Notes under the pieces: generated by a model | What the model was told of the DNA's origin: nothing | Seen by the model: the letters and a program-made list of their open reading frames with translations, nothing else | The model's database searches: none | NCBI RefSeq assembly: GCF_003334315.1 | Contig: NZ_QOWR01000044.1 | From: Escherichia coli | GTDB taxonomy: Bacteria; Pseudomonadota; Gammaproteobacteria; Enterobacterales; Enterobacteriaceae | Direction: 5' to 3' (one strand) | Length of the DNA stretch: 41,657 bases | Shown here: one piece after another, positions 262 through 2,860 of the stretch | Position numbering within the stretch: the first letter of the stretch is position 1 | How the letters are laid out: each line of letters starts with the position of its first letter | Made by a program: the position numbers and the translations under genes

Positions 262-1125
262 TCACAAATAGAGCGCCGGAAATATCAACCGGCTCACCCC
301 GCGCACCTTTAACGCATCAGCCAACGGCTCAACGTCTTCCGGCGTGGCGCTCGCCCAGCTTTGCGCCTCGCCATACACGCCGTGGGCATGAAACGCGTTC
401 AGGCGTACCGGAACATCGCCAAGTCCCTTGATAAACACCGCCAGTTCTTCGATGTGTTGCAAATAATCCACCTGGCCAGGGATTACCAGCAAACGCAGTT
501 CCGCCAGCTTACCGCGCTCTGCCAGCAAACAGATGCTGCGCTTAATCTGCTGATTATCGCGTCCGGTTAATTGTTGATGACATTCGCTCCCCCACGCTTT
601 GAGATCGAGCATTGCGCCGTCACACACCGGGAGTAATTTTTCCCAGCCGGTTTCGCTCAACATACCGTTACTGTCCACCAGACAGGTGAGATGGCGCAGT
701 TGCGGATCGTTTTTGATAGCAGTAAACAGCGCCACTACAAACGGCAGTTGGGTCGTGGCTTCGCCGCCGCTTACCGTTATCCCTTCAATAAACAGCACCG
801 CTTTGCGGACATGGCTAAGCACTTCGTCCACGCTCATGGATTGCGCCATCGGCGTGGCATGTTGCGGACACCTCTTCAGGCAGGTATCACACTGCTCGCA
901 GACCGCAGCGTTCCACACCACTTTGCCGTCAACAATCTGCAACGCCTGATGCGGACACTGTGGCACGCACTCTCCGCAATGATTACAGCGCCCCATCGTC
1001 CACGGATTGTGACAGTTTTTGCAGCGCAGATTGCAGCCCTGCAAAAACAGAGCCAGACGACTGCCTGGCCCGTCAACGCAGGAGAAGGGGATAATCTTAC
1101 TGACTAAAGCGCATCTGCTGTTCAT
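262..1125 (-). CDS. yjjW: Glycyl-radical enzyme activating enzyme (radical SAM, PflA-like with ferredoxin-like insert)
   Basis: 287-aa ORF; N-terminal CNLRCKNC (CxxxCxxC radical SAM motif) plus two CxxCxxCxxxCP ferredoxin-like clusters ([24 protein letters not shown]); matches E. coli YjjW in length and position next to yjjI. Confidence 0.9.
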
Positions 1126-2647
1126 GGCTTATCACGCGCGGCTGGCGTTCCAGAATACGAGTGTTGCGTGCGGCTTCTTCGCCCAGCCAGGTGGTGTTGG
1201 TGCGTGAACCTTCGGCGCGATATTTTTCTAAATCCGACAAACGCACCATATAACCGGTAACGCGAACCAGATCGTTACCGCTGACATTGGCGGTAAATTC
1301 ACGCATTCCGGCTTTAAAGGCACCGAGGCAAAGCTGTACCAGCGCCTGCGGATTACGTTTGATGGTTTCGTCGAGCGTCAGAATGTCGCTGATGCCGGAA
1401 TAATAATAAGCATGATGCGGGGCGACAGTTTGCAGATGGGTGATCGGATCTGGCTCATCGCCATAGGGTAAACGCGCGCCCGGCGTGGTGCCGATATCGG
1501 AACTGATCCCCGACTGTGCGTGTAACATGGCGCGTTTTTGCCAGCCATATTTCACGGGGGTATTGGCGACAAACTCCGCCAGTTGCGCGCTGATGCGATA
1601 ACCCACTTCATTTGCGGCGGCTTCTTTACCGTAGCGCGCGGCAATCCCTTCTTTCTCACACAGCAAGTTAACCGCTTCCGCCAGCCCATACATGCCAAAC
1701 ATTGGCACAAAACGTTCAGGGTTAATCAGCCCTTCTTTCACCAGGAAGCTATTCTCAAAGAAGTGTGATTGTTGATAGAGGAATTCACACCGCGCATCGA
1801 TGATGGCGATCTGCTGCTGGCAGTAGTGCGGTAGAGTGCGCGTAAAGAAGTCATCCAGCGATTCGCTGCGCTCGGCAATGGCTTTCAGGTTAAGGCGTAC
1901 CAGCGTGCTGCCACCACCCGCCAGCGGCAGTGAGTTGTAACAGCTCACAATCCCGTAGCCCCCTTTTGTGAAAATTTTATCATGCACCGGACCGTTGGCG
2001 ATGTGCGGTTTGCTACATTCACAGATGTTCTTCGCCACTTCCAGCAGCAGGTCATCAGGGGTGATTTCTGGATCGTAGATAAAGGTCAGGTTCGGTGAAA
2101 CCTGCTTCAACTCTGCATCTGCACGTAATATCGCACGGGTGATGGGCGAATCAGACGGGCCGATATTGGCGTGCATAAAGGCGTCTGGCAGGGTTCTGTC
2201 GAGGTAACGCCAGAAACGTTTTATTCGAATATCGATCTCGTCTTGTGTTAGAATTCTAACATACGGTTGCAACAACGCATCCAGTTGCCCCAGGTAGACC
2301 GGCATCGATGTGACCGACGGTACGTGGTGGTAAAGAATGGTCAGCAGAGAGAGTGCGTCATCAAGATCTTTCGCGCCTTCCAGCTCCAGCCATTCGGAAC
2401 CGTTCGCCAGAAAACGGGCGTAATCGGGTAAGACATAGCGCGGTTTGTACGGCGCATGACCTTCAAACATATCGCAGATTACACCCTCATCCAGCGCGCG
2501 GCGGGCCTCGGCAGGCAGCTGCGGATAAGGCAGATTGTTTTCTGCTTCCAGTGCCAGAAAATGGCGCTTCTGCTCCGGGCTAAGCACTGGGCTGGTGACA
2601 ATTTGCTGGCAACGTTGTTGCAGTGCATTTTCATGAGAAGTGGGCAT
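1097..2647 (-). CDS. yjjI: PFL-like glycyl radical enzyme family protein, function unknown
   Basis: 516-aa ORF; RVTGY (RVxGY glycyl-radical-like motif) near the C-terminus; overlaps the yjjW start by 29 bp; matches E. coli YjjI in length. Confidence 0.9.
1967..1982. promoter_or_regulatory. Candidate distal DeoR operator (O_E) of the deo operon
   Basis: tgtgaaaattttatca, a degenerate palindrome 279 bp upstream of O1, matching the remembered O_E-O1 spacing; could alternatively be a CRP-like site. Confidence 0.35.
2246..2261. promoter_or_regulatory. DeoR operator O1 (deoP1)
   Basis: Perfect 16-bp palindrome tgttagaattctaaca, exactly 599 bp upstream of the second operator, matching the known P1-P2 spacing. 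Confidence 0.75.
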
Positions 2648-2808
2648 CTTCTTTTCCTTTTATGCCGAAGGTGATGCGCCATTGTAAGAAGTTTCGTGAT
2701 GTTCACTTTGATCCTGATGCGTTTGCCACCACTGACGCATTCATTTGAAAGTGAATTATTTGAACCAGATCGCATTACAGTGATGCAAACTTGTAAGTAG
2801 ATTTCCTT

Positions 2809-2844: not shown

Positions 2845-2860
2845 TGTTAGAATACTAACA
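2845..2860. promoter_or_regulatory. DeoR operator O2 overlapping the deoP2 -10
   Basis: tgttagaatactaaca palindrome containing a tagaat -10-like hexamer, 45 bp upstream of the deoC ATG. Confidence 0.75.

Follow-up and report, generated by a model that had tools for sequence, protein, structure and literature searches.

The yjjI-yjjW gene pair of Escherichia coli, located at positions 262 to 2,647 of the 41,657-nucleotide stretch analyzed here (the window), is best explained as a whole as a self-contained, presumably oxygen-sensitive glycyl radical system, induced by FNR, that on balance probably belongs to anaerobic nucleoside or pentose catabolism. The preliminary description of this DNA had seen here a short enzyme of the glycyl radical type, paired with an activase of its own, a reading now supported by the predicted fold of YjjI, by its residues C236 and G465 and by the adjoining YjjW. 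Among the glycyl radical systems known in E. coli, the pair appears to be one of the last without an assigned reaction.

Organization and distribution of the yjjI-yjjW pair

The two genes and their overlap are located as follows:

1097..2647, minus strand: yjjI coding sequence, 516 aa, predicted minimal glycyl radical enzyme barrel (open reading frame and identical RefSeq coordinates)
262..1125, minus strand: yjjW coding sequence, 287 aa, predicted radical SAM activase with a two-cluster ferredoxin-like insert (open reading frame and identical RefSeq coordinates, TIGR04041, Pfam Radical_SAM and Fer4)
1097..1125, minus strand: 29-bp stretch shared by the 3' end of yjjI and the 5' end of yjjW (open reading frames and RefSeq coordinates)

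The 29-bp overlap was already claimed in the preliminary description, and both the list of open reading frames and the RefSeq coordinates agree with it. An overlap of this kind suggests translational coupling; in distant lineages, overlaps of 4-11 bp occur. Both proteins match their family models over the full length, with 788.2 bits for YjjI against TIGR04040 (cut-off 498.3; PF11230, E 2.4e-220) and 397.9 bits for YjjW against TIGR04041 (cut-off 250.2). Since these scores lie far above the cut-offs, the motif matches described below are not due to chance. The YjjI family (TIGR04040, PF11230) is small and already catalogued. Both TIGR models are labelled "hypoth_equivalog" in NCBIfam release 20.0 and no functional study of yjjI-yjjW was found in the searchable literature, in line with the earlier statement that no function had been assigned. 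The unusual shortness of YjjI was also rightly noted, as the protein is 250-350 residues below the enzymes of the pyruvate formate-lyase (PFL) type. This is a family trait, since all full-length relatives among 1.84 billion representatives measure 490-532 aa.

The pair belongs to the core genome of E. coli, being intact in 5423 out of 5426 complete genomes, and detection of the YjjI protein in this species is on record. Across Enterobacterales, Gilliamella and Aliivibrio, YjjI and YjjW share 63-99% identity and retain the catalytic residues. The pair was also found in bacteria from the gut and from anaerobic habitats, and in some archaea.

Predicted fold and active site of YjjI

Three conserved stretches of YjjI are encoded at these positions:

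1250..1264, minus strand: codons of RVTGY (R462-V-T-G465-Y466), putative glycyl radical loop at a hairpin tip between strands 460-463 and 466-469 (DSSP of the model)
1934..1945, minus strand: codons of S235-C236-Y237-N238, putative Cys finger loop at the tip of hairpin 231-234/238-241 (DSSP of the model)
2435..2443, minus strand: codons of P69-R70-Y71, within APYRPRY(I/V)LPDY, the most conserved YjjI motif; invariant in alignments A2 and A3

The preliminary description had made its reading depend on the presence of both catalytic loops, and in the confident AlphaFold model of YjjI (pLDDT 91.8) both are present: the ten-stranded barrel is complete and bears a pair of hairpin fingers, one carrying the Cys and the other the Gly. 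The alpha/beta barrel of two five-stranded halves expected for the superfamily is seen in this model. The RVTGY motif, likened earlier to a glycyl radical loop, was indeed found at residues 462-466, where it fits the superfamily pattern R-V-x-G-[FWY] on the C-terminal hairpin finger and is matched, with the family profile, to the Prevotella copri NrdD segment LQRITGYLV. In the family alignment, R462 and G465 are almost invariant, and C236 is the only invariant cysteine. The family profile places C236 opposite the Cys that stands second in the Cys-Cys pair of PFL chain 38lb, corresponding to C419 in E. coli PflB numbering, and opposite the Cys of IGCIET in YbiW; hhalign aligned it, with low probability, to C290 of T4 NrdD. 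A PDB sequence search with the single YjjI protein returned nothing meaningful, while the family profile gave weak but sensible matches to PFL, YbiW and NrdD. Taken together with the model, membership of YjjI in the glycyl radical enzyme superfamily is supported.

Iron-sulfur motifs of the activase YjjW

The cysteine motifs of YjjW are encoded as follows:

1012..1035, minus strand: C31-x3-C35-x2-C38, radical SAM cluster motif (translation and PF04055 match)
865..987, minus strand: paired CxxCxxCxxxCP motifs, residues 47-58 and 76-87, two putative auxiliary 4Fe-4S sites (Fer4_9 and Fer4_7 over residues 46-90)
952-987, minus strand: C47-x2-C50-x2-C53-x3-C57-P58 (translation)
865-900, minus strand: C76-x2-C79-x2-C82-x3-C86-P87 (translation)

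The CxxxCxxC motif and the two ferredoxin-like clusters that had been attributed to YjjW are therefore all present in its translation. YjjW adjoins YjjI on the same strand in 50 of the 55 lineage groups.

Regulation of yjjI within the deo region

Four regulatory elements were located in or upstream of yjjI:

2681..2686, minus strand: candidate -10 hexamer (TACAAT) for yjjI, from the phylogenetic footprint
2706..2721, minus strand: candidate FNR site, with half-site ATCAA (2708-2712) in the invariant GGATCAAA(A)G; 21 nt separate it from the downstream -10 hexamer (class II spacing)
2246..2261, no strand assigned: deoO1, perfect DeoR operator palindrome TGTTAGAATTCTAACA, within the yjjI coding sequence (codons 129-134, V-R-I-L-T)
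2845..2860, no strand assigned: deoO2, DeoR operator with one mismatch, in the yjjI-deoC intergenic region, conserved in footprint A4

A -10 hexamer reading TACAAT, TACACT or TACATT is kept in the eight genera out of eight compared in footprint A4; the yjjI promoter was not among the calls of a generic sigma-70 scan. The promoter-proximal half of the candidate FNR site is conserved and the upstream half is weak, with no full FNR palindrome at the yjjI promoter. For yjjI, a ChIP peak of FNR and direct activation under anaerobic conditions have been reported (PMC3688515).

The deoO1 operator contains 0 mismatches, for a chance expectation of 0.12 per window. All genera with an adjacent deo have it at this position, and it is absent where this adjacency is lacking. 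With deoO1 inside the yjjI coding sequence and deoO2 599 bp away in the intergenic region, the candidate yjjI promoter is located between both operators. A CRP site, TGTGATGTATATCGAA, adjoins deoO2 in the same intergenic region and corresponds to a ChIP-seq peak (PMC4287617). This puts the promoter of E. coli yjjI and the 5' part of its coding sequence inside the deo regulatory region, physically interleaved with deoO1, deoO2 and the CRP site of the Deo/Cyt regulon. This regulon (deoCABD) is under the control of DeoR and CytR-CRP, whereas the documented regulator of yjjI is FNR. No known step of the Deo pathway needs a radical enzyme.

Genomic environment of the pair

The preliminary description called the enzyme an orphan. 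This stands for the missing functional assignment but not for its context, as the pair has a deoCABD neighborhood in Enterobacteriaceae and lies in nucleoside operons in unrelated lineages. In Enterobacteriaceae, yjjI-yjjW adjoins deoCABD in divergent orientation, an adjacency that could be inherited synteny. Nucleoside transporter or catabolic genes were found within 7 kb of YjjI in 21 of 55 lineages, and in 12 of these 21 in one apparent operon with YjjI, an enrichment judged against an assumed background of 4-12% and not a measured control; about 60% of lineage groups have no nucleoside gene nearby. Operons shared by YjjI with DeoD, DeoB, DeoC, Add, Cdd and nucleoside importers occur in other phyla. 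Apart from the activase, the top recurring neighbor clusters are all nucleoside-related. In Proteus, Providencia, Aliivibrio and several metagenome lineages, the pair sits among unrelated genes. The scan of genome contigs yielded close relatives only (Enterobacterales, Gilliamella, Aliivibrio), and the distant contexts come from encoding contigs and from a metagenome scan seeded with distant members, the gene calls at metagenome loci being crude greedy open reading frames. Judged from gene order, the deoCABD vicinity and the nucleoside operons of unrelated lineages point to nucleoside catabolism.

No riboswitch was detected upstream of YjjI in an Rfam scan of 16 loci with nucleoside-type YjjI operons, and no dedicated regulator hinting at the YjjI ligand was revealed. 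The scan returned only FMN, TPP and T-box elements, unrelated to YjjI.

Comparison with known glycyl radical enzymes and alternative functions

The solved structures closest to the YjjI model are class III ribonucleotide reductases. The earlier view of YjjI as a PFL-like enzyme is therefore kept for the glycyl radical fold but not for PflB as the nearest relative. Given this resemblance, YjjI might be a second, cryptic anaerobic ribonucleotide reductase converting NTPs or NDPs to deoxynucleotides: its Gly loop resembles that of NrdD and, although E. coli YjjI itself matches the NRDD profile PF13597 at E 0.61 only, the family gives weak to moderate Pfam NRDD matches. We nevertheless consider this very improbable. 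YjjI shares 13-17% sequence identity with NrdD, which is longer (605-740 aa against 516 aa), and the second catalytic Cys that delivers reducing equivalents in NrdD (Cys79 in T4, Cys175 in E. coli) has no counterpart in the YjjI family. In low-probability hhalign alignments, the conserved Tyr71 of YjjI falls at the position of T4 Cys79, and T4 Asn311 has no equivalent, aligning to a Gly-rich loop; an ambiguity of ~15 residues at the intron junction of T4 nrdD lies far from those compared. The Cys4 zinc site that precedes the Gly loop in NrdD is also absent, with CFTC and CSIC of T4 unmatched and no conserved Cys at YjjI residues 430-465 in family alignment A1. According to the model, the ~60 residues before the first barrel strand would leave no room for an ATP cone, a part of most class III reductases, and the barrel-only size would speak against a specificity site as well. 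YjjW is of the ferredoxin-insert type, with two clusters more than the small NrdG, and scores 47-62 bits against NrdG models (cut-offs 126-131). Gene context links YjjI to nucleoside catabolism instead of dNTP supply. Finally, E. coli nrdD mutants fail to grow under strictly anaerobic conditions, so YjjI is no substitute for NrdD. Membership of YjjI among class III reductases was rejected on the failure of the defining residues.

A less remote, though still rather unlikely, alternative is that YjjI is of the PFL or eliminase type and has as its substrate a small metabolite other than a nucleoside (such as a 2-keto acid, diol, amine or sulfonate), its nucleoside-related neighbors being coincidental. 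The PFL-type enzymes (PflB, PflD, YbiW, CutC, glycerol/propanediol dehydratase, HypD and IslA, with activases of the PflA/PflC/CutD type) have longer chains, and no other pathway theme recurs beside YjjI. The Cys-Cys pair of PFL is replaced by S235-C236, and the G-C-x-E loop of the eliminases (diol dehydratases, CutC, HypD, IslA) by S-C-Y-N, the nearly invariant Asn238 aligning to the general-base Glu of YbiW IGCIET. E. coli YjjI has no Pfam match to PFL-like (PF02901) or Gly_radical (PF01228) at E<=10. The PFL and keto-acid formate-lyase class was rejected for want of a Cys-Cys pair and of a profile match, and the 1,2-eliminase class because C-Y-N replaces C-x-E. Ligand-bound structures of PflD and YbiW are now available in the PDB. 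A role in nitrate, nitrite or nitrogen metabolism, which we regard as highly improbable, has been suggested by a two-species co-expression bicluster with an FNR-like motif in which yjjI is grouped with nar genes, including narG (PMC3228777). FNR control alone explains this shared signal, no nitrogen-oxide or nitrogen-assimilation gene recurs beside YjjI in the 55 lineages, and that study offers neither a biochemical nor a genetic test; this published guess, resting on FNR co-regulation, was rejected. If yjjI-yjjW were in decay in E. coli, or left over without a function, this would fit the lack of any reported phenotype or activity in the searchable literature, but its near-universal intactness in the species, the conservation of its catalytic residues across genera, its FNR regulation and the detection of the protein make this scarcely credible.

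Proposed function of the YjjI-YjjW system

By homology, YjjW would be a radical SAM enzyme with one SAM-binding cluster and a further two 4Fe-4S clusters of the auxiliary kind; it would cleave SAM and take a hydrogen from YjjI Gly465. The resulting glycyl radical would oxidize Cys236 of the finger loop opposite, and the thiyl radical so generated would abstract a hydrogen from the substrate within the minimal ten-stranded barrel. The gene neighborhoods and the ribonucleotide-reductase-like fold suggest that this substrate may be a nucleoside, or a pentose or pentose phosphate freed from one, and that YjjI may serve anaerobic nucleoside catabolism beside Deo-type enzymes and BMP-type nucleoside ABC importers. 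The closest chemical precedent would be hydrogen abstraction at a carbon of the ribosyl moiety, as in the reductases, after which a neighboring C-O substituent is lost. Since the family has no second conserved Cys, a thiol-based reduction would be less likely than a redox-neutral reaction of the elimination or lyase kind, or than a reduction by an external donor such as formate. Ordinary nucleoside catabolism needs no radical chemistry, which counts against the proposed role.

The neighborhoods narrow the candidate substrates to nucleosides, ribose, ribose-1-P and ribose-5-P, each also as the deoxy form, in the presence or absence of formate. If nucleosides are indeed used anaerobically through a radical step, this would be a new reaction in a pathway considered fully known, and would be relevant to the use of nucleic-acid breakdown products by gut bacteria. 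With its predicted fold, the YjjI family stands between ribonucleotide reductases and enzymes of the PFL type, a position of relevance to the diversification of radical barrels. More speculatively, and with a likelihood we judge to be low, YjjI could be a reductase-derived glycyl radical enzyme that cleaves a C-O bond by radical chemistry in a free nucleoside or a ribose phosphate and not in a nucleotide, for example a 2'-deoxygenation or dehydration feeding the DeoB/DeoC branch. If so, this cleavage would be a previously unknown step of anaerobic nucleoside catabolism, and YjjI would represent a third functional lineage of glycyl radical barrels, between NrdD and the PFL-type enzymes.

The yjjI-yjjW pair and its family

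The pair is defined by the following features, taken from the ORF listing and coordinates:

262-1125, minus strand: yjjW ORF, 287 aa
1097-2647, minus strand: yjjI ORF, 516 aa
1097-1125, minus strand: 29-bp overlap of yjjI and yjjW

The preliminary description had presented YjjI as a glycyl-radical-like enzyme with YjjW as its activase. Inspection of ORFs and translations located every motif it relied on, as well as the overlap: RVTGY occupies residues 462-466 of the 516-aa YjjI, and YjjW carries C31-x3-C35-x2-C38 and two CxxCxxCxxxCP motifs (residues 47-58 and 76-87). The pair is flanked by yjjV and a REP-rich spacer on one side and by the divergent deoCABD operon on the other. In 5423 of 5426 complete E. 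coli genomes a single chromosomal place, annotated yjjI, yjjW and deoC, covers at least 80% of the window's first 3 kb. YjjI matches TIGR04040 (788 bits) and Pfam PF11230 (2.4e-220), while YjjW matches TIGR04041 (398 bits) and contains Radical_SAM and Fer4 domains. Both TIGR families are tagged ‘hypoth_equivalog’ in NCBIfam release 20.0, which we read as function not established. Since the family is already catalogued, yjjI-yjjW represents neither a newly found gene nor a system of a new kind, but a variant of glycyl radical enzymes that is structurally distinct and uncharacterised. The spacer between yjjV and the yjjW end (window about 41-176) has a median of 29 copies per E. coli genome and also matches plasmids, so it probably consists of REP/BIME-type repeats; the listed ORFs 21-260 and 195-431 are probably spurious.

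A filter-only HMMER search over 1.84 billion representative proteins returned 541 matches to the YjjI family, mainly fragments. All full-length members measure 490-532 aa, so the shortness of YjjI is a family trait and not a truncation. In an alignment of 22 sequences sharing 26-57% identity with E. coli YjjI, G83, G120, D123, C236, E305 and G418 are invariant, C236 being the sole conserved cysteine. Nearly invariant positions include H159, N238, the Gly-rich loop 243-245, R251, H376, Q378, D384, R392, R462 and G465. The most conserved stretch, APYRPRY(I/V)LPDY, lies around residues 65-76.

Predicted structure and comparison with known enzymes

An AlphaFold2 model built from this 22-sequence alignment reached a pLDDT of 91.8 and a pTM of 0.91. 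Its secondary structure comprises two halves of five strands apiece, each followed by a beta hairpin: a Cys hairpin (231-234/238-241) with C236 at its tip and a Gly hairpin (460-463/466-469) with G465 at its tip. The predicted fold is thus the canonical barrel with two fingers, and the structural check proposed in the preliminary description favours a complete glycyl radical enzyme. The 21 best Foldseek matches of the model were all NrdD (21/21).

Residue mapping compares YjjI with three known classes. In a formate acetyltransferase the Cys-loop stretch of the family profile aligns to YAIACCVSSMVVG, and in YbiW to YAAIGCIET. Against the PFL pair, C236 corresponds to the second Cys and S235 stands in for the first; against the G-C-x-E loop of eliminases, C236 matches the Cys and N238 takes the place of the Glu. 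In the same profile search, LQRITGYLV of Prevotella copri NrdD aligns to LVRVTGYLV of YjjI. The T4 NrdD sequence was rebuilt by intron removal and aligned with the family profile; the match has a low probability (10.7%; E 0.003) but is collinear across 374 columns. In this low-probability alignment Cys290 pairs with C236, Cys79 with Y71 of the PRY motif (P69-R70-Y71), and the NN311 position lands on the Gly-rich loop, whereas the zinc-binding CFTC and CSIC have no counterpart in the profile. The roles assigned to Cys79, Cys290, Asn311 and the Cys4 site of T4 NrdD follow the reductase literature. From this mapping, YjjI retains the Gly-to-Cys radical relay and lacks the defining features of reductase, PFL or eliminase; it forms a separate lineage of the barrel.

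YjjW combines the SAM-cluster motif, a GGE motif and a two-cluster ferredoxin insert. Such an insert is typical of the activases of larger PFL-type enzymes (TIGR02494, 134.8 bits), and YjjW is unlike NrdG. Some lineages have activases of about 250 aa without a Fer4 match. These short forms (about 247-250 aa in loci L090-L092 and L178-L182) come from two settings: an archaeal-looking one, with eIF-1A, NMD3 and RIO1 nearby, and a high-GC lineage of bacteria. Not every member of the YjjW family therefore carries the insert.

Gene neighbourhood across lineages

yjjW follows yjjI in 79 of 80 genomes of Enterobacterales, Gilliamella and Aliivibrio; in the remaining one the locus breaks off where the gene ends. 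The two genes commonly overlap, by 4-29 bp. From Escherichia through Hafnia and Edwardsiella the divergent neighbour is deoCABD. In Gilliamella the pair closes a co-directional cluster of deoB, deoD, nucleoside permease, adenosine deaminase, cytidine deaminase and pyrimidine-nucleoside phosphorylase, joined in some strains only by ushA or cpdB.

We then took 80 metagenome loci seeded with distant YjjI members and called their ORFs. Every locus whose called YjjI ORF reached 300 aa or more was assigned, at 80% YjjI identity, to one of 55 lineage groups, and neighbours within 7 kb were clustered. An activase lies near YjjI in 50 of the 55; the next most common neighbour families are listed here.

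Neighbours of YjjI (number of lineage groups out of 55)
Two-domain sugar-type ABC ATPase: 17
BMP-family permease: 10
BMP-family binding protein: 8
DeoD: 7
Ribokinase: 7
DeoB: 6
Nucleoside hydrolase: 6
DeoC: 4
DeoA/Pdp: 4

At least one such nucleoside-type neighbour was found in 21 of the 55 groups (groups with the ATPase alone left out), and in 12 of the 55 a nucleoside-type gene belongs to the same-strand chain of YjjI with gaps of at most 250 bp. Examples of chains are:

L167: DeoD-SBP-YjjI-YjjW-ATPase-permease-permease-DeoC-Add-DeoB
L107: SBP-YjjI-YjjW-ATPase-permease-permease-ribokinase
L148: YjjI-YjjW-ATPase-permease-permease-Cdd-DeoB

The binomial probability of at least 21 linked groups in 55 is below 1e-6, with a background of 4-12% per locus that is an estimate and lineages that are not fully independent. 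Each of the family's four large sequence clusters includes linked groups, and their hosts range from 30 to 61% GC; this spread speaks against one arrangement having simply been inherited. Many lineages, Proteus, Providencia and Aliivibrio among them, show no nucleoside link at their YjjI loci. Gene order varies: the activase lies 5' of YjjI in L086 and L089 (in the latter, adenosine deaminase, PfkB, activase, YjjI), and in L124 ORFs of 220, 468 and 122 aa lie between the two genes. Riboswitch-type hits (FMN riboswitch, L156 17037-17161; TPP riboswitch, L140 7578-7677; T-box leader, L099 18710-18935) are several kb off in other transcription units, unlinked to the pair.

Anaerobic control and overlap with the deo control region

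Published ChIP data place an FNR peak at yjjI and show that FNR activates the gene directly under anaerobic conditions (PMC3688515); yjjI also belongs to an FNR-activated expression cluster (PMC2634741). It is induced 4.3-fold anaerobically in Yersinia intermedia (PMC3792023), and the protein was found by proteomics (PMC6561319). yjjI-yjjW is a conserved, expressed, FNR-controlled unit. In an eight-genus alignment the upstream region has diverged save for two islands:

2708-2712: candidate FNR half-site ATCAA, within an invariant GGATCAAA(A)G island
2681-2686: TACAAT/TACACT/TACATT island, 21 nt downstream of the half-site island

The upstream half-site is weak; the 21-nt spacing agrees with a class II FNR promoter.

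These candidate promoter elements share the 257-bp spacer between yjjI and deoC with the operator deoO2 and with a CRP site for which a ChIP-seq peak has been published. The deo operators are:

2246-2261: deoO1, perfect 16-bp DeoR palindrome inside yjjI, codons 129-134 (V-R-I-L-T)
2845-2860: deoO2, second DeoR operator, one mismatch, 599 bp from deoO1
1967-1982: third, weaker candidate TGTGAAAATTTTATCA inside yjjI, four mismatches to consensus, exactly 279 bp from deoO1

The protein stretch encoded at deoO1 is a variable, indel-prone loop. The operator keeps its in-gene position in all genera with adjacent deoCABD, Hafnia and Edwardsiella included, and is missing from yjjI of Proteus, Providencia, Gilliamella and Aliivibrio; this stretch is therefore coding sequence and operator at once. 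Given the operator positions, the yjjI promoter and the first 400-680 bp of the gene fall inside DNA known to be looped by DeoR, and the upstream deo promoter transcribes antisense to the start of yjjI. The 279-bp spacing of the third candidate matches that of the upstream deo operator OE. The only sigma-70-like match of a promoter scan (minus strand, 2001-1974) overlaps this third candidate. Published ChIP-seq peaks for CRP fall within yjjI and also, at TGTGATGTATATCGAA, in the spacer that separates it from deoC (PMC4287617). Read as its reverse complement, TGTGACCGACGGTACG (2309-2324, within yjjI) gives the motif reported under the in-gene peak of ETEC H10407 (PMC4287617); it probably belongs to the upstream deo promoter region. 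The mechanical ORF starts deoC at TTG 2881, RefSeq at ATG 2905.

Proposed function and alternatives

The pair has the fold, Gly loop, Cys loop and activase of a glycyl radical system, and YjjI is very probably a functional enzyme of this kind. The earlier observation was confirmed and its interpretation supported. By homology, YjjW would generate the radical on G465 of YjjI, from which it would pass to C236, and C236 would take hydrogen from the substrate. Context and fold suggest that this substrate may be a nucleoside, or a pentose or pentose phosphate derived from one, a link towards which we lean modestly. The family has neither a second redox cysteine nor the eliminase Glu and keeps Tyr71, Asn238, His159, His376, Gln378, Glu305 and several Arg/Lys. 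For this reason we favour either a redox-neutral reaction that would break a C-O or related bond, or a reduction with an external donor; the specific case in which YjjI would cleave the 2'-C-O bond of a free nucleoside or ribose phosphate in reductase-like fashion seems unlikely.

The missing reductase residues and domains contradict a reading of YjjI as a cryptic ribonucleotide reductase. That it acts on some unrelated small molecule, as an enzyme of PFL-like or eliminase type, is less likely than the nucleoside link: it lacks their signature residues, and its neighbours show no other recurring pathway theme. The published guess of a role in nitrogen metabolism (PMC3228777) is explained by FNR co-regulation, and conservation of the pair contradicts a decaying gene. 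The searchable, openly accessible literature reports no function for yjjI and, on glycyl radical enzymes together with nucleosides, holds nothing relevant. As far as we could find, the nucleoside association and the deo control-region overlap were undescribed before; they make the question of function directly testable.

Some operons hint at a natural substrate other than a plain nucleoside, perhaps a riboside that is modified or conjugated. L087 has the order nucleoside hydrolase, ADP-ribosylglycohydrolase, PfkB kinase, PNP, YjjI, YjjW, MFS, Bmp; there and in L084/L085, an ADP-ribosylglycohydrolase-family gene shares an operon with nucleoside hydrolase, ribokinase, PNP and YjjI. The L087 operon also includes a sulfatase or alkaline-phosphatase-superfamily gene (1187-2206 and 3806-5341 in L087 for the two genes). 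In two lineage groups, a 660-677-aa protein with no NCBIfam match is encoded divergently, adjacent to YjjI and beside a nucleoside hydrolase (L153 7802-9835; L171 7902-9884).
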